Source: Pirellulaceae bacterium (lineage in GTDB: Bacteria; Planctomycetota; Planctomycetia; Pirellulales; Pirellulaceae). Taken from it: a DNA stretch of 64,000 nt. Position 1 is the stretch's first letter. Every line of letters starts with the position of its first letter. This document shows, in pieces, positions 2,330 through 31,439 of the stretch. The notes under the pieces are model-generated. The model was not told the DNA's origin. It made no database searches and worked only from the letters and a program-made list of their open reading frames with translations. The DNA is taken from contig JAWKTM010000007.1 in assembly GCA_041399085.1 (NCBI GenBank), positions 87,822 to 151,821 on the forward strand. Reading direction: 5' to 3'. A program made the position numbers and the translations under genes.

Positions 2330-3355
2330 CTAAGGCAGCCAGAGCGACAATGTCTGACTTTGGTACTCGACGTTGTTGATCTTTTGATTGCCGCCGTAAG
2401 CCAGCTTGTCGTCCAATTGCTGTTCGAGCAGCTCGATCTGCCGCCGGTTACCCAATTTGGCAACGACCAAAATCGCGTACAGCCGCGCGTGCTGTTGAGC
2501 CAGATTCGGTTGCGAAAGCGTGCGAATCGCCGGCTGAAGTCCCTCGGGCAATTCGTAATGCACGGCCAAAATCATGCCTTGATAAGCCGTGTCGCCGTCG
2601 GCTCGTCGAATCCAGCCGCCCAGCAGCCGCCGCAATGTTTCTCGCTGCGGGCCGGCCGTGATCGCTTCGCGAAAGCCCTTTTGATACACGAACTGATACA
2701 CGTAGCTGGACGTGTTGTGGTCGATATTGATGTTCTCTTGGCCGGCGGCGAACAACAACGCGGCCACCGCGCCGACCGTCGGTTCGCGGCGATCCGTGGG
2801 GTTTTGGAGACCTTGCTGCAGGACCGCGACGCGAGCCGCCACGATTTCGGGCGTGGCGGCCGGGTTGTGCTCCAGCGTCTCCAACAACTCGGGCGTCGCC
2901 TTTTGCATCTCGACAAAAATCTGCCGCGCCTCGGGCTCTTCGCCGATCCGATCGCGATACGACTCCCAGCTCGGCAGCCCCATCCCGTCGGACTTATCCG
3001 GATTGTTCAGAAACTCGTTCAGCCGACGGCGGAAATCGACCTCCCGCACGATCGCCAAAATCCGCTCGCAGCGATAGCGAATTTCCCGGTCCGACTGATC
3101 CAGACCGCCTTCCAACGCCGGCAAGGCGGGCATGCCGATGCGGATCAGTTGCTCCGTCGCCCGCTCGCGAGCCGCAAATTCGGGATTTCCCAGTTGGGCC
3201 AGCAACGTGCCGATTCGCACGTCGTCGGCGCTGGCCGGGCCACCGCCCTTCAGTGGTTCGTCGGCCCGCAGCGATATCGGCGACAAGCACCCCCACGCCA
3301 ACCCGCAGGCCAAGCTCAATGCCGCGCCACAAACAAATGGTCGTTTGGTGTGCAT
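2330..3355 (-). CDS. Hypothetical secreted protein (N-terminal signal peptide)
   Basis: 341-aa ORF with hydrophobic N-terminus MHTKRPFVCGAALSLACGLAWG and balanced composition. The antisense 392-aa ORF is Arg-rich and looks spurious. Confidence 0.6.
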   Translation of the reverse strand: MHTKRPFVCGAALSLACGLAWGCLSPISLRADEPLKGGGPASADDVRIGTLLAQLGNPEFAARERATEQLIRIGMPALPALEGGLDQSDREIRYRCERILAIVREVDFRRRLNEFLNNPDKSDGMGLPSWESYRDRIGEEPEARQIFVEMQKATPELLETLEHNPAATPEIVAARVAVLQQGLQNPTDRREPTVGAVAALLFAAGQENINIDHNTSSYVYQFVYQKGFREAITAGPQRETLRRLLGGWIRRADGDTAYQGMILAVHYELPEGLQPAIRTLSQPNLAQQHARLYAILVVAKLGNRRQIELLEQQLDDKLAYGGNQKINNVEYQSQTLSLWLP

Positions 3356-11864: not shown

Positions 11865-12281
11865 ATGACCGTCAAACAGATTTTAGTGCCGACGGACTTC
11901 TCTCCATCGGCCGAAGCGGCATTGAGGTATGCCACGCTCTTGGCACACGAGACCGACGCGACGTTGGCCGTGCTTCATGTACATGCGACGCCCGCGCTAA
12001 AAGGGGCGGAAGATGACCTTCACGATTCCGAAGCGGCAAAGGCCCGCGAGCGGTTGCGAGCTGTCGAGCCGTTGGGGCATGCCGTGGCCATCGAACATCA
12101 TTTCGTGGTCGGTCAACCGTCCGAGGTGATCCATCGATTGGCCGAGCGGCTTGAGGTGGACGCGGTCGTGATGGGAGCACACGGCGAGACGGATTCGCCG
12201 CACGTGTTGTTAGGCGCAGTCGCCTCGGCGGTACTTGCCAAGGCCACAACGCCAGTGCTTACCGTGAAGTTGCCAAAGTAG
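11865..12281 (+). CDS. Universal stress protein (UspA family)
   Basis: MTVKQILVPTDFSPSAEAAL... and VVMGAHGETDSPHVLLGAVASAVLAKATTPVL. Confidence 0.85.
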   Translation: MTVKQILVPTDFSPSAEAALRYATLLAHETDATLAVLHVHATPALKGAEDDLHDSEAAKARERLRAVEPLGHAVAIEHHFVVGQPSEVIHRLAERLEVDAVVMGAHGETDSPHVLLGAVASAVLAKATTPVLTVKLPK

Positions 12282-12295
12282 ACGTCGCCAAACAA

Positions 12296-13231
12296 CTACG
12301 CATCGGCAATGACGGCGATTTCCACACGCGTGGTCAACGACTCGTTGGGCTGCCGTCTTTAGGCCCGAAGAGACGCCTCGCGATTCCAAATACAAAATGG
12401 ATCAGGTAACAAGTATAAGGCTCGACACAGATCGCTTCGCGGTGGGCGGGTGTAGACGACGCAGGCGGTGTTGAGTTCATCGAATCAGGTTTCAGTGTGC
12501 GTTTGGCCGCGGGATCCACGATCGACGATTCATATTTGGTGTCGCTCTTTCCAAACCGCTGAAGACATCGTCGAACGTGGCGTCATGAACAGAATGCTGG
12601 CAGCGAAGCGGCTAAGAATCCGACGGCACACACTGGCCCGTGGGAACCATGTTTTGCAAAGGCCAATGATCGCGGACGGGGACTTGGACCCGACATTCGC
12701 CCGCGTCGTTTCCACCCAGTGGCAAGCGGAAATAAGGATGCGCGCCGAAACCGAACGGCGGGGGATCAGCCCGGGTTTTCGAATGTGAGTGCTAGTGTGA
12801 GTCGATCGTCGCTCAGCTCATAGGTGGCCGTGATCCGAAAGTCGCTGGGCCAGCGTTCTAATGACGGGTCGTCGACGGAAGCTTGGAACTGGCCCACGAC
12901 GGCGTCTCGCTTTGCTCCGCAGTCACTAGCCGGTGACGTGATCAGTGAAACCAGATGCCATTGCCGCGACCATCGGCGGCTTCAACGGATACGTCTTATC
13001 TTGCCAAGTGAAAGACGTCCCGGGCCAACGACCAGGGAACGGGAACAACAATGGAATCCCGCTGCCCGACGGACGTTGCTCGGGATCGACGCCGAATCCC
13101 AGCGCTGACCCCAAAATGCGTCGGTCGTTTGTCCGGCGACGACGGCTTTGAATTCGTAGCAGTTGAATCCTAAATGAGCCGCGATGCGAGCCGACGCGCC
13201 CGGCGGCGGTGCGAAGTGTGATGGGGTTCAT
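12296..13231 (-). pseudogene. Aldose 1-epimerase-family gene, frameshifted
   Basis: Minus-strand frames give FGAHPYFRLPLGGN (a GxHPYF hallmark) and GIPLLFPFPGRW, but these lie in different frames with stops between. Confidence 0.5.
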
Positions 13232-23979: not shown

Positions 23980-24825
23980 CTTTTTCTGATCTTGGTCTCG
24001 TCTTTCGATATCGCTCTAAATCCTGTTGAATCTTCGACTTGAGGCGATATCATTCTGTTGCTGAACGAGGAGACTGCGGTTTCTCCGCCAAACGTTCGAT
24101 TATGAGGCCGATAAGGGTTCGATAAGCCCTTTCTTTTGGTTCGATAAGGGCCGGATGGCACCCTTCGCGTCGAGGTGTTTTGATGCCGACTCGATCTCGC
24201 ACCGTCTGGAAATTGCGCAGTGACGGCCAGTTTGATTGCCGCGTGGGCTGGAAAATCAATGGCCAAGGCAAGCGGGATCAGCACGGTTTCGGCTGCACCG
24301 AGCCGGCGGAAGCTAATGACGGGATCAAGTGCTGCGGCTGCGCGGAAGTGGATGGATCGGAGCATGGAGACGAACGTCAGTTGTTGTTCTTCTATTCATC
24401 GTGCGCTCAAGAACTCGCAACGCTGGAACCCAACCTAACCTTTTCACTGCATCGGCTCGGAGTCGTTGCGGGCGAATCGCGAGTCTCCTCTCGACTTTGA
24501 ATCACCGATGCGATTTTAGACTGCCCACTTGCTCGGTCAGTACCAGGGATTCGCACCCTTGCTCGGTTCATGGGAATAAGTCCGAAAGGTGGCGTCCTAC
24601 TCTCAGTCAACCACAAGCTAATTGAGTGAACCTTTCGCGAGCCTTTTCTGTCTACTATTACAGACACGCGACCGAAGTGGTCGTCAGCAGAACAAGGACA
24701 CCGACAATGATGACTTTACGATCGAGTCTCATATCCGAACAAGAATATCAAGGTAGTTTCGCCAATCAACCGGCGAATACGCCCGCGCTGTGTTTACGCT
24801 TGTGACACTCGACTGAGTATCCACG

Positions 24826-24876
24826 GGATTACCAAAACCCGGTGTCACAAGTGCAAGTGACACCGGGTTTTTTCGT
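24826..24876 (+). terminator. Rho-independent terminator-like hairpin immediately upstream of the tRNA array
   Basis: CCCGGTGTCAC-AAGTGCAA-GTGACACCGGG followed by TTTTTT. Confidence 0.6.
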
Positions 24877-24892
24877 GCCCGGACGACAACTT

Positions 24893-24964
24893 GGGCTGGT
24901 AGCTGAGACGGTATAGCGGCGGTCTGAAGAACCGCAGACGAGGGTTCGAGCACCTCCCGGCCCA
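24893..24964 (+). tRNA. tRNA-Phe(GAA)
   Basis: Acceptor GGGCTGG/CCGGCCC; anticodon loop CTGAAGA; T-arm GAGGG-TTCGAGC. Confidence 0.8.
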
Positions 24965-24992
24965 CTTTGCGCTCAAAGAGCGCGCACAACAT

Positions 24993-25065
24993 GGCCCGTT
25001 CGACTTCGGGTGAGGTCATCGGTCTTTCAAGCCGAGTAGGTTGGGTTCGACTCCCACACGGGCTG
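24993..25065 (+). tRNA. tRNA-Glu(TTC)
   Basis: Acceptor GGCCCGT/ACGGGCT; anticodon loop CTTTCAA; T-loop TTCGACT. Confidence 0.8.
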
Positions 25066-25084
25066 CTTGAAAAAACAACACGAT

Positions 25085-25159
25085 CAGAACGTGGCGAAGC
25101 CTGGTTATCGCGCGTGGTCGGGGGCCACGAGATCGCAGGTTCAAATCCTGCCGTTCTGA
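25085..25159 (+). tRNA. tRNA-Pro(GGG), non-canonical C33
   Basis: Acceptor CAGAACG/CGTTCTG; anticodon arm CGTGG-TCGGGGG-CCACG; T-arm GCAGG-TTCAAAT-CCTGC. Confidence 0.65.
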
Positions 25160-25181
25160 CTGAACGAACAAAACAATTGAT

Positions 25182-25254
25182 CGGGCAGAGGTGCAGATGG
25201 AAGCACGCCTGCTTTGGGAGCAGGAGGGTCTCGGTTCGACTCCGAGGTGCCCGA
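25182..25254 (+). tRNA. tRNA-Pro(TGG)
   Basis: D-stem GTGC/GCAC; anticodon arm CCTGC-TTTGGGA-GCAGG; T-arm CTCGG-TTCGACT-CCGAG. Confidence 0.75.
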
Positions 25255-25264
25255 CTTGAAAAAC

Positions 25265-25336
25265 GGTAGTCGAGGGCTGGTTGCCCATACTCGGCTGATA
25301 ACCGAGTCGCGCTGAGTTCGATTCCCAGGACCACCA
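25265..25336 (+). tRNA. tRNA-Ile(GAT)-like, with A.C mismatches in the acceptor and T stems
   Basis: Anticodon arm CTCGG-CTGATAA-CCGAG; T-loop TTCGATT; atypical D-arm. Confidence 0.5.
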
Positions 25337-25407
25337 CTGAACGCGTAATGAACAGGAGAACAATGATGCACGCTGTCCGCTTGAAACGCATACACCAGAC
25401 CGATCAC

Positions 25408-25480
25408 AGGGTCGTGGTGTAACAGGCAGCACAGCAGACTTTTAATCTGCACGGTGTGGGTTCGATTCCCTCCGGCCCTA
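25408..25480 (+). tRNA. tRNA-Lys(TTT)
   Basis: Acceptor AGGGTCG/CGGCCCT; anticodon arm GCAGA-CTTTTAA-TCTGC; T-loop TTCGATT. Confidence 0.8.
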
Positions 25481-25485
25481 CTCGC

Positions 25486-25558
25486 TGGCGCGTAGCTCAG
25501 CGGTGAGAGCGGCGTCCTTATAAGACGCAGGTCGTGGGTTCAACTCCCATCGCGCCGA
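25486..25558 (+). tRNA. tRNA-Ile(TAT) (UAU anticodon, unusual for bacteria)
   Basis: TAGCTCAGCGGTGAGAGC D-arm; anticodon arm GCGTC-CTTATAA-GACGC; T-arm GTGGG-TTCAACT-CCCAT. Confidence 0.7.
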
Positions 25559-25574
25559 CTGAAGACAACAACAT

Positions 25575-25665
25575 GGGACTAAGGTGTTAGCGGCAGCCGA
25601 CCCGGAAGCCGGGTACCCCGCGGCTCTTAACCGGTGAGGTCAGGGTTCGAGCCCCTGTGGTCCTA
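25575..25665 (+). tRNA. 91-nt tRNA-like gene with canonical acceptor and T-arm but no resolvable anticodon arm
   Basis: Acceptor GGGACTA/TGGTCCT; T-arm CAGGG-TTCGAGC-CCCTG; internal hairpin CCCGG-AAG-CCGGG. Confidence 0.4.
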
Positions 25666-25679
25666 CTGACAATTTGCAA

Positions 25680-25751
25680 GCACTGGTCGTCTAGCGGCGA
25701 AGACTCCGCACCCGTAATGCGGCGACGTCGGTTCGAGTCCGGCCCGGTGCT
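25680..25751 (+). tRNA. tRNA-Thr(CGT), C33
   Basis: Acceptor GCACTGG/CCGGTGC; anticodon arm CCGCA-CCCGTAA-TGCGG; T-loop TTCGAGT. Confidence 0.75.
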
Positions 25752-25783
25752 CTGATGATCTTTGACAATTTGAAACGCAACAA

Positions 25784-25855
25784 GCGCCCATGATGTAAAG
25801 GCCAGCCTACTGCCTTGCCATGGCGGAAGTGCGGGTTCGATTCCCGCTGGGCGCT
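25784..25855 (+). tRNA. tRNA-Gly(GCC), weak D-arm
   Basis: Acceptor GCGCCCA/TGGGCGC; anticodon loop TTGCCAT; T-arm GCGGG-TTCGATT-CCCGC. Confidence 0.65.
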
Positions 25856-25863
25856 CTCAATAT

Positions 25864-25937
25864 CAGGGTGTGGGAAAGCCTGGCATTCCGCGTGCTTCGG
25901 GAGCACGAGATCGTTGGTTCAAATCCAACCATCCTGA
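25864..25937 (+). tRNA. tRNA-Pro(CGG)
   Basis: D-stem GGAA/TTCC; anticodon arm CGTGC-TTCGGGA-GCACG; T-arm GTTGG-TTCAAAT-CCAAC. Confidence 0.85.
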
Positions 25938-25946
25938 CTTAATGAT

Positions 25947-26021
25947 TGCGGTGGGTTCCGTGTTGGTACGGGTAGGCGGCTGTTAACCGCCCTGACGCAG
26001 GTTCGATTCCTGCCGCCGCAG
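25947..26021 (+). tRNA. tRNA-Asn(GTT)
   Basis: Anticodon arm GGCGG-CTGTTAA-CCGCC; T-arm GCAGG-TTCGATT-CCTGC; acceptor TGCGGTG/CGCCGCA. Confidence 0.75.
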
Positions 26022-26038
26022 CTTGTGAACATGAAAAC

Positions 26039-26122
26039 GGAAGGGCAAGCCAATTGGCGATGGCAGCCGCTTCGAAAGCGGTCGAGCGATGAGCCTTGAG
26101 GGTTCGACTCCCTCTCCTTCCG
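26039..26122 (+). tRNA. tRNA-Ser(CGA), class II
   Basis: Acceptor GGAAGGG/TCCTTCC; anticodon loop TTCGAAA; long variable arm; T-arm GAGGG-TTCGACT-CCCTC. Confidence 0.8.
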
Positions 26123-26138
26123 CTGAACGACAAACAAC

Positions 26139-26210
26139 GTGCTCTTGGCCGAGCGGCAAAGGCTCCAGGCTTCCAACCTGGCGAGGCGGGTTCGATTCCC
26201 GCAGAGCACT
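26139..26210 (+). tRNA. tRNA-Gly(TCC)
   Basis: Acceptor GTGCTCT/AGAGCAC; anticodon arm CCAGG-CTTCCAA-CCTGG; T-arm GCGGG-TTCGATT-CCCGC. Confidence 0.85.
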
Positions 26211-26222
26211 CTTCAGATTGAT

Positions 26223-26294
26223 GGGTCGGTAGCTCAGCGGCAGAGCAGGTGCCTGTTAAGTACCAGCGCGCGGGTTCGAGTCCCGCCCGTCCCT
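26223..26294 (+). tRNA. tRNA-Asn(GTT), second copy with a different sequence
   Basis: Anticodon arm GGTGC-CTGTTAA-GTACC; T-arm GCGGG-TTCGAGT-CCCGC; one acceptor mismatch. Confidence 0.7.
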
Positions 26295-26305
26295 CTGTGA
26301 AACGA

Positions 26306-26379
26306 TGCGGGGTAGTCGCTGCTGGTAGTGATGCCTGACTTTGAACCAGGAGGCGTAGGTTCGATTCCTACCCCCGCAG
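26306..26379 (+). tRNA. tRNA-Gln(TTG)
   Basis: Acceptor TGCGGGG/CCCCGCA; anticodon loop CTTTGAA; T-arm GTAGG-TTCGATT-CCTAC. Confidence 0.7.
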
Positions 26380-26433
26380 CTCGAGGCGAACCATGCACGA
26401 ACATGCGTGTCGTTTGAAACACACAACAACCAT

Positions 26434-26536
26434 TGCGGGACAGTCGCTGTTGGTAGTGACGCCTGGCTCCGGGCACCGATCGGCCATAAGGCCGGATTGG
26501 TCGTGGAGGCCGTTGGTTCGATTCCAACTCCCGCAG
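26434..26536 (+). tRNA. 103-nt tRNA-like gene: a paralogue of the Gln tRNA whose anticodon stem-loop is replaced by a ~50-nt insert containing a CGGCC-ATAA-GGCCG hairpin
   Basis: Acceptor TGCGGGA/TCCCGCA; D-arm nearly identical to 26306..26379; T-arm GTTGG-TTCGATT-CCAAC. No 5-bp/7-nt anticodon arm can be drawn. Confidence 0.4.
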
Positions 26537-26546
26537 CTCAAAGGAC

Positions 26547-26631
26547 GGAAGTCATCCGGCTGGATGAGGAGCCTGTTTTGAAAACAGGTGGCGACGCGAG
26601 TCGCTTGTGAGTTCGAGTCTCACGACTTCCG
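26547..26631 (+). tRNA. tRNA-Ser(TGA), class II
   Basis: Acceptor GGAAGTC/GACTTCC; anticodon arm CCTGT-TTTGAAA-ACAGG; variable hairpin GGCGAC-GCGA-GTCGCT; T-arm GTGAG-TTCGAGT-CTCAC. Confidence 0.85.
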
Positions 26632-26642
26632 CTCCGAAAGAT

Positions 26643-26713
26643 GGGCTCATCGTCCAACAGGAAGATGCTGGCGTCGCATGCCAGAGATTCGGGTGCAATT
26701 CCCGATGGGTCCA
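26643..26713 (+). tRNA. tRNA-Ala(CGC)-like (G3.U70 present), reduced D-arm, T-loop TGCAATT
   Basis: Acceptor GGGCTCA/TGGGTCC; anticodon arm CTGGC-GTCGCAT-GCCAG. Confidence 0.55.
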
Positions 26714-26722
26714 CTCAACAAC

Positions 26723-26795
26723 AGTCCTGTGGCCTAGCGGCGAAGGCAGCTCTCTTACAAGGAGCGGATCGGGGGTTCGAGTCCCTCCAGGACTA
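26723..26795 (+). tRNA. tRNA-Val(TAC)
   Basis: Acceptor AGTCCTG/CAGGACT; anticodon arm GCTCT-CTTACAA-GGAGC; T-loop TTCGAGT. Confidence 0.8.
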
Positions 26796-26810
26796 CTTCA
26801 GCAACACGAT

Positions 26811-26903
26811 GCCCAGATACGCCAATCGGCAGAGCGGTCCGGCTCGGGCACCGACCGAAGGTTGGTCGCCGGACGTTTGCAGGTTCGAGTCCTGCTCTGG
26901 GTA
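26811..26903 (+). tRNA. 93-nt tRNA-like gene whose central domain is a 7-bp stem (GTCCGGC/GCCGGAC) enclosing a 24-nt loop
   Basis: Acceptor GCCCAGA/TCTGGGT; T-arm GCAGG-TTCGAGT-CCTGC; no canonical anticodon arm. Confidence 0.4.
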
Positions 26904-26917
26904 CTGACAACACGCAT

Positions 26918-26991
26918 GGCTCGGTAGGCAATTGGCAGACCACTTTGGCTTAGAACCAGAGATGCTGCGGGTTCGAATCCCGCCTGAGCTA
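26918..26991 (+). tRNA. tRNA with Leu anticodon TAG on a short-variable-arm (class I) scaffold
   Basis: Anticodon arm TTTGG-CTTAGAA-CCAGA; T-arm GCGGG-TTCGAAT-CCCGC; discriminator A. Confidence 0.55.
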
Positions 26992-27000
26992 CTTTCATAC

Positions 27001-27073
27001 GTCCTCGTGGAGCAGCGGAGTGCTCGCCTGCCTGTCACGCAGGAGATCGTGGGTTCAAATCCCATCGGGGACG
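27001..27073 (+). tRNA. tRNA-Asp(GTC)
   Basis: D-stem GAGC/GCTC; anticodon arm CCTGC-CTGTCAC-GCAGG; T-arm GTGGG-TTCAAAT-CCCAT; discriminator G. Confidence 0.85.
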
Positions 27074-27079
27074 CTGAGA

Positions 27080-27131
27080 GTCGCCTTTCGCTCCGCGAAA
27101 GCAGCGCTACTTTCGCGGAGCGAAAGGCGAC
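27080..27131. repeat. Perfect 22-bp inverted repeat (GTCGCCTTTCGCTCCGCGAAAG / CTTTCGCGGAGCGAAAGGCGAC) with an 8-nt loop, lying between tRNAs
   Basis: Direct reading of the sequence. Confidence 0.8.
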
Positions 27132-27135
27132 AAAC

Positions 27136-27213
27136 GGCGCGGTACGCAAACCGGTAAAGCGGCGAAGCTCAAAACTTCGTGATCGTCTGTGAGTTCGACT
27201 CCCACCCGTGCTA
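27136..27213 (+). tRNA. tRNA with Leu anticodon CAA, class II-type D-arm but only a 9-nt variable region
   Basis: D-arm CGC-AAACCGGTAAA-GCG; anticodon arm CGAAG-CTCAAAA-CTTCG; T-loop TTCGACT; discriminator A. Confidence 0.6.
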
Positions 27214-27221
27214 CTGAGAGT

Positions 27222-27311
27222 CGTGAGGCGTGAGACTTGGGCATTGGCAGGCCCAAGTGGCTGTAACCCACCCGCTTTCGAGCTTTGCAGGTTCAACTCC
27301 TGCTCGGGCGC
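27222..27311 (+). tRNA. tRNA-Tyr(GTA)-like, class II, with unpaired acceptor stem (probable pseudo-tRNA)
   Basis: D-arm GGGC-ATTGGCAG-GCCC; anticodon GTGG-CTGTAAC-CCAC; 15-nt variable region; T-arm GCAGG-TTCAACT-CCTGC. Confidence 0.4.
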
Positions 27312-27403
27312 ACTGAAAGCATGGCCCTGTTCTTCCTACGGCAGGTGATGCGAGCCTCAAGCCTCCGCGATACGGGTTCAACTCTGTACGGGCTGGCCGA
27401 TAT

Positions 27404-27487
27404 GGCGAGGTGGCGGAACAGGTATACGCGCGCGACGTCAGAACGTCGTCCGCCGGGACATGCGAGTTCGAATCTCGCCTTCGCTAC
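27404..27487 (+). tRNA. tRNA-Leu(CAG), class II with long variable arm; anticodon loop only 6 nt (TCAGAA)
   Basis: Acceptor GGCGAGG/CTTCGCT; D-arm GCG-GAACAGGTATA-CGC (close to E. coli Leu); T-arm GCGAG-TTCGAAT-CTCGC; discriminator A. Confidence 0.7.
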
Positions 27488-27639
27488 TCGAAACACTGCA
27501 GGTGCGACAGGTGTCCAACTGACTTTCATACGGTCGGCGCTCGGCTCGATACCGAGACTCCGCAACTGCGGGTGGGCCAGTGCTCATCGGAGCCTCATGA
27601 GCCTGACTGCCGGGTGCGACCCCCGGACCCGCCACTTAC

Positions 27640-27716
27640 GGCCGAGTACGCAAACAGGCAAAGCGGTCACGTCGAGAGCGTGGCGATTTTGTGGGTTCGA
27701 TGCCCACCTTCGGCCT
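27640..27716 (+). tRNA. tRNA with Leu anticodon GAG, C33, short (8-nt) variable region
   Basis: Acceptor GGCCGAG/TTCGGCC; D-arm CGC-AAACAGGCAAA-GCG; anticodon arm CACG-TCGAGAG-CGTG; T-arm GTGGG-TTCGATG-CCCAC. Confidence 0.55.
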
Positions 27717-27725
27717 TCCACTGAC

Positions 27726-27794
27726 GATCTTGTCCAGCGCAGAAGACGCTCTGGGTGAACCAGGAGATCGATGGTTCGATTCCATCCGCGATCA
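27726..27794 (+). tRNA. Degenerate tRNA-like element (intact T-arm and acceptor, 5-nt anticodon loop)
   Basis: T-arm GATGG-TTCGATT-CCATC; acceptor GATCTTG/CGCGATC with one mismatch. Confidence 0.3.
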
Positions 27795-27892
27795 CTTATG
27801 AATTAATATTCGTAGGTGTTCCGGTAGCACGCGTCCGTGGTAAGGGACGGGAGATTGGGTTCGACTCCCGAACGGACCTCCTCTCAATGAAT

Positions 27893-27964
27893 GGGCTCAT
27901 GCTGATGGAGGCGACTGACCCTTGCAAGGTCGGTGCAGACTGGTTCGACCTGGATCAGGTCCAC
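27893..27964 (+). tRNA. tRNA-Ala(TGC)-like paralogue of 26643..26713, with degenerate T-arm
   Basis: Acceptor GGGCTCA; G3.U70; anticodon arm GACC-CTTGCAA-GGTC. Confidence 0.4.
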
Positions 27965-27979
27965 TTGATTCTGGGCTGA

Positions 27980-28046
27980 TGGTCCAACGGGGAAGACACC
28001 GCCCTGGCGTGGCGGAAATCCGGGCCCGAATTCCCGGTCGGTCCAC
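27980..28046 (+). tRNA. Degenerate tRNA-like element with Ala(GGC)-type anticodon arm
   Basis: CCGCC-CTGGCGT-GGCGG stem-loop plus a CCGGG...CCCGG T-arm-like hairpin; the acceptor cannot be paired. Confidence 0.3.
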
Positions 28047-28063
28047 TGACATTGAAAACATAC

Positions 28064-28147
28064 GGAAGGCAGTTGATATACCCGCCGGGCCGGTTTGCTA
28101 AACCGTGTGACTCCACAAGGTCATGTGGGTCAACCTGATGCCTTCCG
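28064..28147 (+). tRNA. tRNA-Ser(GCT)-like, class II, degenerate T-arm
   Basis: Acceptor GGAAGGC/GCCTTCC; anticodon arm CGGT-TTGCTAA-ACCG; variable hairpin TGAC...GTCA. Confidence 0.45.
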
Positions 28148-28159
28148 GGCTGATGGCCT

Positions 28160-28226
28160 GATGGTGAAATGGAAATCATATCTCGCTTCTAACGAGATGG
28201 TCCAGGTTCAACTCCTGGTCGAGCTT
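28160..28226 (+). tRNA. tRNA-Arg(TCT)-like with an unpaired acceptor
   Basis: Anticodon arm TCTCG-CTTCTAA-CGAGA; T-arm CCAGG-TTCAACT-CCTGG. Confidence 0.4.
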
Positions 28227-28248
28227 CTGATTGAAAACGGAAGGGCAA

Positions 28249-28326
28249 CCCGATTGGCGACGGGACCCGGTTGGAAGCCGGTCGAGCATTTTCTAAACGC
28301 CTTGCGAGTTCGACTCGCTCCGCTGA
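28249..28326 (+). tRNA. Pseudo-tRNA-Ser(GGA), a paralogue of 26039..26122 with a degenerate 3' acceptor and shortened T-loop
   Basis: Shares 5' GAAAACGGAAGGGCAA... with the Ser(CGA) gene; anticodon loop TTGGAAG. Confidence 0.35.
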
Positions 28327-28370
28327 GCAAATGCGTGACGTAACGCGTGAACGGAAAGGACAAGACAATG

Positions 28371-29170
28371 AGCACACTAATTCAAGACGCATTCAAGGCG
28401 ATCGCTATGAAGCTCGTCGAGATTTGCAGGTAACGCTTTCGAGATTGACGTTCGACAAAACGGCGATCGCGAAGTGTACCAGCTCAAGTACCCAACCGGG
28501 GATAACGTCTTGGCTGAGGCGTTCGATGCTTCAAGTCGAAGCAGCGTCACCTGGTGTTGATGTCTCAGGCTGGCGTTTGCCAATTGGTGGACGCTTACTT
28601 GTGCGGCCACGACGAACAACATTTGAAGTCTGTTGCTTCGCTGCCTTCGATCGACAGACAACAACCGTTCGCGCGCGATGGAGGCGTTGAAGCCTGGAGA
28701 CGCAGCGAGAGCAGAAGCGAAAGGGTGTGAAGCACCGACGTCATCGCCGAAAGACAGCGGCGGCGTGCGACAAGGCGAGTGGTTCTTCCTGCCACGACCC
28801 AAGATGCACGCAGGTGAAGCATGACCCGCAACGGCCGATTGGTCCGTGGTGCCGGCAAGCCGCATCGCGTTGAGTGGTTGTATCGTCCTGCGGATCGGGA
28901 CGAGACGTTTGTTCGGGGAGCGGTTTCTGCACCCCGATCACAAGACGATTTACCTGCAAGTATGGCATCGCGTAGTGCAGAACAACGAAGCTGCCAACTC
29001 CTGAGGCACGCCAGTTCACTGCATGTTGTACCTCGATTAAACCTGGGCCGTCGCGCTTCGGTGACGGCGGCCCACATTTATGGTGTCCGTGGTGTACGCG
29101 GTGTAGCACGTCTGCTCGTGAAGCAGAATGTACGGTCCCCTGTCGGTCACCCTTCGGAACAGAGAAAGGA
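28371..29170 (+). pseudogene. Hypothetical gene(s) split across frames (MSTLIQDAFKAIAMKLVEIC... / FEIDVRQNGDREVYQLKYPTGDNVLAEAFD...)
   Basis: Protein-like segments in shifting plus frames; no recognisable family. Confidence 0.25.
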
Positions 29171-29720
29171 ATGGATCATGGTAGCGAAGATGCTCCAGTG
29201 CCCGGGCGCTGGTGCTGGAACCGCAACTGGCAGCCAGTGAACGTGGCCACGGTGTTGCGGGGCTGGTGCTGTTGTGGAACGAGTCCGCGCGGGTCGTCGA
29301 TCCAACGGACTACCAGCTTTACACCTGGGAGGATTGGTCGAAGTTGCGTCCGCGCGACGACGAGCGGTTCATCCAGGCGGTGAAGTTTCGCTGCGTGTGC
29401 CGGAAGTGATTACGCTCGCCGACTACGACCGGGTTGCCATCGGCGGCCGTCTCGTTCAGCCGTCGGAACATTTTCAAGCGTGACCATTACACGTGCCAGT
29501 ACTGCGGTCGGCAGCCCGGCAGCGAGGAACTGACGATCGACCACGTTGTGCCTGTGCTCAGGGCGAGTCGCGGTGGGATCAACTGCGTGCTGGATGGTTT
29601 GACGTGCAACCACCGCAAGGCCGACCGCACGCCACAGCAAGCCAAGCTGCGACTCCGCAACGAGCCAGCACAGCCGAAGTGGAACCTGCTTACACCGCGG
29701 CACGAAGTGCGAATGGAAAG
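29171..29720 (+). pseudogene. HNH endonuclease (classic ~170-aa HNH family) with at least three frameshifts
   Basis: MDHGSEDAPVPGRW.WNRNWQPVNVATV (frame A); LLWNESARVVDPTDYQLYTWEDWSKLRPR...AVKF (frame B); RVPEVITLADYDRVAIGGRLVQPS (frame C); then RRNIFKRDHYTCQYCGR...TIDHVVP...GLTCNHRKADRTP (CxxC...H-N-H motifs). Confidence 0.65.
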
Positions 29721-29823
29721 CTTCATCGAAGTTCGTCAGCGAGGCGTACTGGAACGTCGAGCTGGCGAAGTAATTGACAACGATCGCTCCCTGGTTCCAG
29801 TCGCCGGGAGTTTCTCACTCCAC

Positions 29824-29889
29824 GAGCGTGCTCCTGGGAGAAGCAGCCAGCCTCCAAAACTGGCGGACAGGGTTCGACTCTCGCGCTCT
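29824..29889 (+). other. tRNA-like remnant (acceptor GAGCGTG/CGCGCTC, TTCGACT loop, no proper T-stem)
   Basis: Direct reading; low confidence. Confidence 0.25.
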
Positions 29890-29899
29890 CATGCTTTGC

Positions 29900-30265
29900 G
29901 AGGCTTGAGGTGTGAGGCTTGAGGCTTGAGGGGCGTGTTTTCCTCGGTTTCCTCAGGTCTCAGGACTCAAGCCTCACTTACGCCCTGCGAGTGTGTGATT
30001 TTTTGGACGGCATGGCAGACTCTGGAATCTGCCGGACGAGGTTCGATTCCTCGATAAAGCGTGCTAGGCTTGAGGCGCGAGGCTTGAGACTTGAGGGAAG
30101 AACAGAGAACGATCCTTCCTCGAGCCTCAGGTCTTAAGTCTCAGGACTCATGAGTCGCCGGAGTGTGCCGGATTCGCACGCGAGCCCGCGAAGCTCGAAG
30201 ATCAGGTTCGATTCCTGGCGGCGACACTGAAGAGGCTTGAGGTGTGAGGCTTGAGACTTGAGGGA
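29900..30265. repeat. GAGGCTTGAG repeat family: three ~34-bp forward units (29900-29933, 30065-30097, 30232-30265) alternating with inverted units (29951-29976, 30115-30150), flanking a tRNA half-like module (30014-30052) and a tRNA-like gene
   Basis: Direct reading. The related motif GAGCCTCAAGCCTC also occurs inside the array at ~27345-27365. Confidence 0.7.
30154..30226 (+). tRNA. tRNA-Arg(GCG)-like, C33, embedded in GAGGCTTGAG repeats
   Basis: Perfect acceptor GTCGCCG/CGGCGAC; D-stem GTGT/GCAC; anticodon arm CGAGC-CCGCGAA-GCTCG; T-arm TCAGG-TTCGATT-CCTGG. Confidence 0.55.
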
Positions 30266-30267
30266 GG

Positions 30268-30828
30268 TTAGTTGTCGGGGCGTAACGACCGGATTAGGCC
30301 AACGAGGACGCGAGCGGTCTCGTCGGCCTGGCGGCTGAGATCGGTGGCGACATCGTCCGGCAGATAGCCGAGACGATGGGCGACGGATAGCTGGTACTCG
30401 ACTTCGCGGGCCGAGCCCAATGCTAGGTCGAGAAACCGAACGTAGTCTGCCTGCGTGCTACGAGCGCAGCCTTCGACGATGTTCGAGGCGATGGAAAGAG
30501 CGGCACGGTGCATCTGGGATGTAAGCCCGAACAGCTCTTCTTTCGGGAAGGACTTCGTCGCGGCGTAAACGGCCAGGACCAGCGCGTCAGCAAGCTCGAA
30601 CGCCCGGAGTTTTCGATGATCTCTCATGACGACATTTTCTTCCCGTCTCGTGGTCCTGGGCTTCACGACTCGGAACAATGACGCCAGAGCCAGACGGTGC
30701 AAGGCTGCCTCGGGCGAAGCCAGCGGTTCGACCTCGCCGGCGTCTCTTCCAAGCAAGGTTTCGATGTCGTCTGGACCAGCGGCGCCTCGATCCATCCATT
30801 CGGATTCGGGTCGGTGTGTTCCGGACAT
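30268..30828 (-). CDS. Four-helix-bundle protein (TIGR02436; 23S rRNA IVS-associated family)
   Basis: ELFGLTSQMHRAALSIASNIVEGCAR...DYVRFLDLALGSAREVEYQLSVAHRLGYL. Confidence 0.8.
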   Translation of the reverse strand: MSGTHRPESEWMDRGAAGPDDIETLLGRDAGEVEPLASPEAALHRLALASLFRVVKPRTTRREENVVMRDHRKLRAFELADALVLAVYAATKSFPKEELFGLTSQMHRAALSIASNIVEGCARSTQADYVRFLDLALGSAREVEYQLSVAHRLGYLPDDVATDLSRQADETARVLVGLIRSLRPDN

Positions 30829-30857: not shown

Positions 30858-30930
30858 ACAAGGTTAGCTCAGAGGGTAGAGCACCAGACTATGAATCTGG
30901 AAGTCACGGGTTCGACTCCCGTACCAACAC
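30858..30930 (+). tRNA. tRNA-like gene with intact D-, anticodon- and T-arms but unpaired acceptor stem (possible integration-site remnant or pseudo-tRNA)
   Basis: TAGCTCAGAGGGTAGAGC D-arm; anticodon arm CCAGA-CTATGAA-TCTGG; T-arm ACGGG-TTCGACT-CCCGT; 5' ACAAGGT does not pair with 3' ACCAACA. Confidence 0.4.
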
Positions 30931-31439
30931 CACCAACAGGCTGTATCATGGCAATCGATGCCCGAACCGCCAGGACATCGGCGTTACCCAAGAGCCTGAG
31001 GGAGGCGGGCGTACGTAGGATCGGCTGCCAGTTGGTCGCCATGTAGGCGAGTCTCGAAGAGACTGGCTTACAGAAGTGATCGGCCGGTGGCAGCATGAAC
31101 GAACACCATGTAGTGCGCGGATACCGCCTTTGCCCGCTGTCGGTGGAAGGTTGCCGGTGCTGGTGAGCGACGCCACGGGCTGCGGCCCGACGCGAACTCA
31201 TCAGCCGACGCAGTCGAAAACCGTCAGCGGTGACCGCTCAAGCAGCACTCCGTGCCAGTTCATGTGATCCGCGAACGTTCCGCCTTCCAACGGCGTCTCT
31301 TTCGTTTAACCGCAACGCCAACGGCGTGCGTGTGGAGCGCGGTTGGACGATCGATTGCAGCACACGCGCAGCCCGTTGGGCTTGCGGTTAAACGATGATG
31401 ACACACCACGCCCTTGATAACAGAAAGGAGGGCAATCCA

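Follow-up and report, generated by a model that had tools for sequence, protein, structure and literature searches.

Results

A long tRNA array with C33 loops

The window, that is, the whole stretch of 64,000 nucleotides of Pirellulaceae DNA analysed here, contains a long array of tRNA genes on its plus strand (24893-30227), and four of these genes have C in place of the near-invariant U at position 33 of the anticodon loop (C33). The array is composed of 27 tRNAs called by ARAGORN and about 12 degenerate tRNA-like units; Rfam placed 21 of the 27 above threshold. Twenty-six of the ARAGORN tRNAs lie within 24893-28227 (3.3 kb, approximately 8 per kb), and the count reaches 27 by position 30227. 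By definition, a long tRNA array (L-array), or tRNA array unit, comprises 20 or more tRNA genes with no fewer than 2 per kb (PMC4758250), and the genes are co-oriented and near enough for co-transcription (PMC8421152). All of the array genes in the window are on the plus strand with spacers of mostly 5-30 nt, and a single leader with a terminator is located upstream. An associated homing endonuclease gene is also found, as an HNH pseudogene in the window and as HNH homologs within related arrays. The cluster thus qualifies as a long tRNA array in the published sense (PMC4758250, PMC8421152). None of the array tRNAs has an encoded CCA, and no tRNA gene was found in the window outside the array.

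The tRNA calls and the cloverleaf drawings were obtained with ARAGORN, and the Rfam covariance model RF00005 was used as an independent check. A previous reading of this DNA from its letters alone (the sequence-only reading) had claimed C33 in at least five array members. C33 was genuine in four of these five loops, each of which was a 7-nt anticodon loop closed by a stem of 5-6 bp in the ARAGORN fold: tRNA-Pro(GGG) at 25085-25160 (loop TCGGGGG, C33 at 25119), tRNA-Thr(CGT) at 25680-25752 (loop CCCGTAA, C33 at 25712), tRNA-Leu(GAG) at 27640-27716 (loop TCGAGAG, C33 at 27673), and tRNA-Arg(GCG) at 30154-30227 (loop CCGCGAA, C33 at 30187), all on the plus strand. With RF00005, Pro-GGG and Thr-CGT scored 55.9 and 51.1 bits, respectively, which is above the gathering score of 29 bits, and the second loop column of the alignment was C in both, in agreement with ARAGORN. 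Arg-GCG scored 23.7 bits and was below the gathering score, and Leu-GAG was not matched. All four genes thus lack the U33 of a canonical elongator tRNA, and four C33 among 27 tRNAs exceeds a background of 1% (binomial p = 1.5e-4). When the loop was shifted by one base, the closing pair was destroyed in every case examined by hand; hence, U33 is unattainable in any register. Loops of 8 or 9 nt, other registers, and a U32-centred turn for the TC-type loops were also tried by hand, and the closing pairs were lost.

The fifth loop had been described as a Pro-like C33 loop in an expanded element at 26811..26903. The unit, at 26811-26904 on the plus strand, is instead an ortholog of tRNA-Leu(TAA), which aligns end to end with Leu(TAA) of the related arrays L001, L009, L026, and L030 (L-numbers denote loci or contigs fetched from other assemblies). 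A 24-nt hairpin insert (26845-26868, fold of -8.5 kcal/mol) stands in place of its anticodon, and a like insertion was observed in L012. C32 and T33 are retained and the following TAAAC is swapped for CGGGCACCGACCGAAGGTTGGTCG; accordingly, the unit is a disrupted gene and not a C33 tRNA. The claim of five or more members in the window therefore holds for four.

On inspection by hand, C1-G72 and A73 are present in the window Pro-GGG, whose sequence matches the L006 copy at 100% identity, and G1-C72 and C2-G71 are present in the window Thr-CGT. In E. coli, C1-G72 and A73 are identity elements of tRNA-Pro, and G1-C72 and C2-G71 are those of tRNA-Thr. The window Leu-GAG has U73, whereas its orthologs have A73, and it carries an extra T in the 3' acceptor strand, so that this copy may be locally damaged or impaired. 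Among the leucine tRNAs of the array, those at 26918-26992, 27136-27214, and 27640-27716 have variable regions of only 5-8 nt, as opposed to the long arm usual in bacterial tRNA-Leu. The Leu-CAG ortholog at 27404-27487 is short by one loop base, with TCAGAA between CGACG and CGTCG where its orthologs have TTCAGAA or CTCAGAA; ARAGORN drew it with an 8-nt loop and a 4-base anticodon. Besides tRNA-Arg(GCG) at 30154-30227, the array encodes tRNA-Ile(TAT) at 25486-25559, and both anticodons are unusual for bacteria.

C33 in related arrays

Related arrays were located through contigs with close homologs of a neighbouring SPFH protein and then with the array-embedded HNH protein as an anchor in species-representative genomes. 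The same array was present upstream in the SPFH contigs L001, L004, and L005, and as a remnant in L002. The HNH-anchored scan yielded arrays in L006, L009/L010, L011, L012, L014, L016, L026, L029, and L030, and a 10-tRNA stretch in L007. This HNH protein is a called open reading frame (ORF) or a tblastn match inside the related arrays, and its homologs outside Planctomycetota had no adjacent arrays. The arrays came from metagenome-assembled genomes (MAGs) of Pirellulales, Pirellulaceae, Thermoguttaceae, and other Planctomycetia, and from one MAG labelled Gammaproteobacteria. In addition, L091, a 94-kb viral contig, carries the same array family with C33 in the same members, adjoining two serine recombinases. 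The array family is thus found in several planctomycete families, in a MAG with a Gammaproteobacteria label, and in a viral contig, a distribution that may reflect horizontal spread. The SPFH neighbour persists in distant relatives; in L009 its gene is located downstream of the array (11943-13049).

The gene order of the window is syntenic with L001, L004, L006, L009-L012, L014, L016, L026, L030, and L091. The common order is Phe-Glu-Pro-Pro-Ile-Lys-Ile(TAT)-Lys-Thr(CGT)-Gly-Pro-Asn-Ser-Gly-Gln-Gln-Ser-Val-Leu-Leu-Asp-Leu-Tyr-Glu-Leu-Met-Leu(GAG) in the first half, followed by Val-Thr-Ala-Ala-Ser-Arg-Ser-[ORF]-His-HNH-Trp-Thr-Arg x4-Cys after Leu(GAG).

We pooled 396 tRNAs from 15 syntenic arrays in independent assemblies. 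Position 33 was T in 326, C in 69 (17%), and G in one; these counts rest on ARAGORN folds, with the Rfam cross-check for two genes, and hairpin-disrupted genes account for 3 artefactual ARAGORN calls among the 69 (the 92-nt Phe-GAA of L009 and L010, and Val-AAC of L010). The numbers of C33 per array were 4 of 27 tRNAs in the window, 3 of 36 in L001, 4 of 36 in L006, 10 of 39 in L009, 8 of 34 in L010, 6 of 33 in L011, 6 of 34 in L012, 4 of 16 in L014, 7 of 27 in L016, 6 of 31 in L026, and 5 of 37 in L030.

The C33 calls fell in particular members. Leu-GAG had C33 in 10 of 11 arrays (loop TCGAGAG), Thr-CGT in 8 of 10 (CCCGTAA), Glu-CTC in 8 of 9 (CCCTCAA/C), and Pro-GGG in all 5 true orthologs and also in the L091 copy (TCGGGG[GA]). 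Glu-TTC (loop CCTTCAA, 5 of 9 arrays) and Thr-TGT (CCTGTAA or TCTGTAA, 5 of 10) were mixed. Arg-GCG had C33 in 3 of 12 arrays, the window loop CCGCGAA being shared with L007 and L014 and the remaining arrays having CTGCGAA or GTGCGAA. Twenty-seven isoacceptor families, comprising approximately 270 tRNAs, had no C33 at all; these include Ile, Lys, Asn, Gln, Asp, His, Trp, Cys, most Arg, and four Leu families. Judging from these alignments, C33 is inherited and tied to particular array members. Furthermore, identical C33 loops were present in at least 10 independent assemblies, which rules out the assembly or polishing error that the sequence-only reading had named, together with a different stem register, as a way to recover U33. 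The second of these ways is excluded by the loss of closing pairs described above.

Constraint on C33 tRNAs

The D-loop and T-loop invariants are intact in the array family. In the same 396 tRNAs, T54 was conserved in 99.7%, C56 in 100%, A58 in 99.7%, and the G53-C61 pair in 98%, values that are inflated to some extent by the bias of ARAGORN toward intact T-loops. T54 and T55 were changed to C in only 1 and 4 of 393, respectively. U8 is a second departure from a canonical invariant, being conserved in only 69% (G in 59, A in 43, and C in 20 of the 396). The lone purine at position 33 indicates that the site is still restricted to pyrimidines.

The C33 tRNAs had a mean of 1.01 stem mismatches vs 1.22 in the U33 tRNAs (p = 0.36). 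The anticodon stem of Leu-GAG was GTCACG/CGTGGC or GCGAGG/CCTCGT depending on the array, and the loop TCGAGAG was constant. Among its orthologs, identity falls to 68-79% and 33 of 72 columns outside the loop vary, and C33 was kept in 11 of 12 copies, including that of L091. Likewise, Thr-CGT had four pair types at one T-stem position with the loop unchanged. These comparisons suggest that C33 in the array family shows signs of purifying selection.

C33 in metagenomic and viral tRNA clusters

As controls, tRNA clusters were taken from a metagenome sample and a viral-contig sample by the same rule (two GGTTCGA T-loops 62-90 nt apart); both samples are modest in size and the counts below are uncorrected for relatedness. 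In metagenome loci with fewer than 8 tRNAs, that is, ordinary clusters, non-U33 was found in 1 of 135 tRNAs. In all metagenome loci together, there were 5 C33 and 3 purines among 223 tRNAs, and 7 of these 8 non-U33 tRNAs were in array-like loci. C33 was therefore enriched in the arrays (69 of 396) relative to the ordinary metagenomic clusters (1 of 135; Fisher p = 1e-8).

In the viral-contig tRNA clusters, C33 was found in 46 of 795 tRNAs (5.8%), and in 20 of 166 (12%) on contigs with a G+C content of at least 60%. The viral clusters, too, are thus enriched in C33 when set against the ordinary ones. Fourteen of the 28 viral loci with at least 10 tRNAs had at least one C33. C33-bearing arrays adjoin a major head protein gene in L092 and a large terminase gene in L100. 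No C33 was found in Streptomyces phage JustBecause (0 of 10), a 595-kb megaphage (0 of 34), L088 (0 of 26), or L116 (0 of 40). The amino-acid families with C33 were correlated (rho = 0.49, p = 0.03) when the planctomycete arrays were compared with the independent viral sample; Val, Ala, Glu, Thr, and Pro were high, and Gln, Asp, His, Trp, and Phe had no C33. When the window array was compared with named phages by blastn, only single-tRNA matches were obtained. A scan of viral sequences with the 15-mer GAGGTCGAGAGCCTC from the Leu-GAG arm gave largely chance matches outside tRNAs, L091 being the only informative one.

A predicted attenuator upstream of the array

A leader ORF of 32 codons (MMTLRSSLISEQEYQGSFANQPANTPALCLRL*) is located at 24707-24805 on the plus strand. 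Its TGA stop codon (24803-24805) falls within a strand, CTTGTGACAC (24799-24808, plus strand), that is complementary to the 5' half of an intrinsic terminator at 24838-24873 on the same strand (stem 24838-24848/24857-24867, T-run 24868-24873). The terminator ends 20 nt before the first tRNA. We compared the 260 nt before tRNA-Phe in the window, L006, L009-L012, L016, L026, L030, and L091. In 10 of 10 arrays with a start available, a leader ORF 30-33 codons long, its stop codon in the same context, was found directly 5' of tRNA-Phe, and the distance from the terminator to tRNA-Phe was 4-23 nt. In the terminator helix, 100% of the cells were paired and two pairs had compensatory changes. The helix with the antiterminator strand was paired in 93.9% of the cells, vs 17-59% in slid registers, and two pairs were changed on both sides. 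The window leader is rich in rare codons, with an index of 0.51 similar to the codon adaptation index vs 0.73 +/- 0.09 for the long ORFs of the window; its codon usage is at about the first percentile of 32-codon windows taken from those long ORFs.

The conserved leader and the alternative helices suggest a ribosome-mediated transcription attenuator that would control the whole array. A ribosome at the leader stop codon would cover the antiterminator strand, allowing the terminator to form. If the ribosome stalled earlier, the antiterminator strand would be free and read-through into the array would be expected. The predicted attenuator is consistent with the induction of the Anabaena L-array by translation inhibitors, which was reported in a paper that describes no attenuator (PMC8421152).

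Hairpin inserts and other features of the locus

The insert in the Leu(TAA) ortholog belongs to a hairpin element of 24-34 nt, GGGCACCG...GGTC, in which GGGC is followed by a 7-8 bp hairpin and then C. The window has only two copies, both within the array. The second is a 34-nt variant (26470-26503; -16.4 kcal/mol, z = -3.1) that breaks the anticodon loop of a tRNA-Gln(CTG) ortholog at 26436-26534 on the plus strand. The element replaces or interrupts D-loops or anticodon loops, or sits before or in T-arms, in both orientations and in at least nine fetched arrays; copies were also seen in L002, L006, L007, L009, L010, L012, L014, L016, and L091. There were 28 copies inside array intervals (93 kb in total) vs 1 in 270 kb outside, and a filtered search found the element confined to the planctomycete array family. 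A viral scan with CGGGCACCGN{8,20}TGGTCG gave 120 chance matches.

The HNH homing-endonuclease gene at 29157-29772 (plus strand) is a pseudogene: it is interrupted by an in-frame stop after ...CVCRK and shifts frame near 29725, and its catalytic region is scrambled. A pseudogene remnant of an array-embedded ORF of approximately 225 amino acids lies at 28426-29037 (plus strand; 43% identity by tblastn with L001:2586-3263). In L001 this ORF (2586-3263) is located between Ser-GGA and His; homologous stretches are present in L026, L030, L029, and L007, and in L006 it is split into two pieces. Pfam and PDB searches gave no match for this ORF, nor did Pfam searches for the ORFs upstream of the array. 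The approximately 12 degenerate units of the window map onto intact tRNAs in the related arrays. With both genes pseudogenised and these units degenerate, the window copy of the array is partly decayed. The long ORFs elsewhere in the window are intact.

The window copy is in a Pirellulaceae-like chromosome. The flanking proteins are typical of Planctomycetota (PSCyt2/PSD1, BBP7, and DUF7133-HEAT-cytochrome c), the nearest source-named relatives of the neighbouring SPFH protein are from Pirellulaceae MAGs (87-95% identity), and phage genes are absent near the array.

Several further observations were made on the arrays. In about 85% of the array tRNAs, the discriminator base is followed by CT (CTGA in 95 and CTTG in 66 of 386; for example, CTGA at 25161-25164 in the window), and this conserved trailer is possibly a 3'-processing signal. 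An inverted repeat rich in GAGGCTTGAGG occurs at 29896-29985, 30066-30150, and 30232-30265, flanking the last units of the array, namely a degenerate Arg-TCG-like unit and Arg-GCG. Beyond the array, a tRNA-like remnant at 30862-30934 on the plus strand has the loop CTATGAA (anticodon ATG) and a CCA-like end (54.2 bits, model positions 5-66). It has no matching 5' acceptor strand, adjoins the start of a 23S_rRNA_IVP/bAvd-like gene (30268-30828, minus strand), and is 98% identical to a copy in L006 (8103-8178). Neighbours of the related arrays include a sigma-54 activator and a Ro60/TROVE protein in L016 (4360-6300 and 11793-13424) and a BREX defence system in L001 (7137-16367).

Discussion

In this study, C33 was found as a recurrent trait of particular members of a planctomycete L-array. 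L-arrays in Planctomycetes had already been listed in two papers (PMC4758250, PMC8421152). The array described here resembles the known L-arrays in its closely packed tRNA genes, which number in the dozens, share one orientation, and cover most amino acids, in the HNH homing endonuclease nearby, in the pseudogenes among its members, and in a patchy distribution suggestive of horizontal gene transfer, and a role in translational stress has been proposed for the known ones. However, 15-25% of the members here carry C33, of which there is no mention in either paper. Furthermore, the arrays here have a conserved predicted leader-ORF attenuator, none being described for Anabaena, and array-specific hairpin inserts that replace tRNA loops.

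Phage tRNA clusters proposed to evade nucleases (PMC10264068; PMC11555353) are also similar, with about 20-40 tRNAs and non-anticodon loop positions that depart from the canonical bases. C33 arrays adjoin capsid and terminase genes, and the same array family is present in the viral contig L091. On the other hand, PMC10264068 is silent on position 33, C33 was found in 0 of 44 tRNAs of the two named phages sampled, and the planctomycete array is stably chromosomal beside the SPFH gene in several relatives. A bacterial precedent is tRNA-Asp-AUC of Streptomyces, a C33 elongator on a putative former integrative element, which is expressed and is reported to decode efficiently in vivo; its authors suggest that C33 blocks recognition and deamination by a loop-directed adenosine deaminase (PMC9262613). 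That case differs in being a single gene for another isoacceptor in another host phylum. The C33 initiator tRNA-Met of multicellular eukaryotes and the G33 tRNA-Ser(CAG) of Candida are natural, functional exceptions to U33 as well, and C33 is an anti-determinant for the bacterial and yeast enzymes that form N6-threonylcarbamoyladenosine (t6A) (PMC5041475, PMC8887486). These tRNAs are eukaryotic, one of them is a P-site initiator, and each is a single species, unlike the many elongator isoacceptors found here. The link of L-arrays with Planctomycetes and homing endonucleases was known. For C33 in tRNA arrays or phage tRNAs, full-text literature searches turned up no description, and the C33 trait of the arrays is apparently undescribed so far.

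C33 in the window is neither an error nor the result of local decay. A sequencing or assembly error, or a mis-drawn register, has a negligible probability, since 10 or more independent assemblies share identical C33 loops, the Rfam covariance alignment matches ARAGORN, and the long ORFs of the window are intact. The explanation that we favour, with modest confidence, is that the window array is a partly decayed chromosomal copy of a planctomycete L-array that is horizontally mobile and related to phages. In this array family, C33 is inherited and member-specific and would be selectively maintained in probably usable backup tRNAs, where it would alter their recognition by proteins that read U33. 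The sequence-only reading had offered a lineage-specific peculiarity as one possibility. This fits, with the qualification that the lineage appears to be the mobile array family and not the host, because C33 tracks the syntenic arrays across Planctomycetia MAGs and the viral contig.

The following mechanism can be proposed. The array would normally be silent, and stalling of ribosomes in the rare-codon leader, as might occur when translation is stressed or tRNAs are depleted, would allow it to be read through. In Anabaena, translational stress induces the L-array, the tRNAs of which occur aminoacylated and on polysomes (PMC8421152). The C33 tRNAs here would likewise still be chargeable and able to decode, and C33 would change how U33-reading proteins see them. 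E. coli TsaBCDE forms no t6A on a U33C tRNA (PMC8887486); by analogy, C33 may also defeat anticodon nucleases or other enzymes that bind the loop. Changes in the anticodon loops of phage tRNAs have indeed been proposed as evasion of tRNA nucleases (PMC10264068). The C33 tRNAs might thus be backup or evasive versions of the housekeeping tRNAs.

Several observations weigh against this explanation. The gamma-toxin of K. lactis cleaves a C33 substrate as well as a U33 substrate (PMC2275089), and no nuclease that U33C would defeat was identified. In the viral sample, C33 was found in 16 of 504 tRNAs below 50% G+C vs 30 of 291 above (p = 6e-5), and a rise of C33 with G+C content is what mutation pressure with tolerance would produce. 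Conservation of U8 in only 69% of the array tRNAs indicates that constraints are relaxed in some respects, and the ARAGORN bias makes the T-loop look more constrained than it may be. In the window itself, the array is decaying, as seen in the HNH gene, the 225-amino-acid ORF, and the degenerate units; Leu-GAG and Arg-GCG are under the Rfam threshold, and Leu-GAG has U73. A stronger form of the favoured explanation holds that C33 has been positively selected and marks a class of backup tRNAs that derive from phages and are induced by stress, the leader sensing stalling or tRNA depletion and C33 in Leu-GAG, Thr, Glu, Pro, Val, and Ala tRNAs hiding them from U33-dependent nucleases or modification enzymes while decoding is kept. 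We regard this form as tentative.

The G+C trend supports near-neutral tolerance, in which a U-to-C transition drifts into redundant, rarely expressed tRNAs under G+C pressure and persists by descent without a function. The mixtures of C and U within families (5:4 in Glu-TTC, 5:5 in Thr-TGT, 3:5 in Val-TAC, and 3:8 in Arg-GCG), the loose conservation of U8, and the visible decay of the window array are all in accord with drift of this kind. However, the state of position 33 is member-specific, with C nearly fixed in four families and never seen in 27 (approximately 270 tRNAs). C33 is also kept against variation in about half of the remaining columns, arrays of unrelated gene order have it in the same amino-acid families, and T54 and T55 were not pushed to C. 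On balance, near-neutral tolerance is less likely than the favoured explanation, but it is the main rival and a serious one. A further candidate, selection of C33 at the DNA level by the HNH enzyme of the array, was dropped because C33 is scattered over about 20 genes distant from the HNH gene.

The sequence-only reading had proposed that the C33 genes are decoding-impaired tRNAs, or regulatory or mimic RNAs. U33 is described as almost invariant and required for the U-turn (PMC5041475), and in yeast tRNA-Gln, U33C and U33A gave a phenotype in which the authors saw a preliminary sign of lowered translational efficiency (PMC3664417). Three of the 26 genes of the Anabaena array are pseudogenes (PMC8421152), and two of the four window genes, Leu-GAG and Arg-GCG, are under the Rfam gathering score. 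Nevertheless, the cloverleaves are intact, with compensatory changes as they evolve, Pro-GGG and Thr-CGT reach 51-56 bits and have the features of the tRNA-Pro and tRNA-Thr identity elements, degeneration is no greater in the C33 tRNAs than in the U33 tRNAs beside them, and the Streptomyces C33 elongator decodes (PMC9262613). Impaired decoding need not be assumed for the C33 tRNAs, and no feature of a regulatory RNA was found that would support such a role; we judge dead genes or co-opted RNAs to be unlikely. Restoration of U33 in the mature tRNAs by C-to-U RNA editing is more improbable still, the case for it being an analogy together with the ORF without assigned function that some arrays embed. 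CDAT8 performs C-to-U editing at position 8 of tRNA in Methanopyrus; we know of no editing at position 33. Moreover, the 225-amino-acid ORF is absent from the C33-rich arrays L009, L012, and L016, and Pfam and PDB searches found no deaminase signature in it.

About one in six tRNAs in the array family and about one in 17 in the viral-contig clusters carry C33, against the near-invariant status of U33. If the C33 tRNAs work, as we favour, they would be a natural test set for what decoding needs U33 for, and would show which loop-directed enzymes, such as those for t6A and queuosine, deaminases, and anticodon nucleases, depend on U33. They would also bear on why phages and mobile elements carry full sets of tRNAs. 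If the C33 tRNAs are in fact stress-induced backups shielded from such enzymes, the approximately 6% of C33 in the viral-contig clusters would represent a widespread, unrecognised strategy of counter-defence. Finally, the predicted leader-ORF attenuator offers a concrete and testable route by which the arrays may sense translation stress, and with it the purpose of L-arrays becomes approachable.

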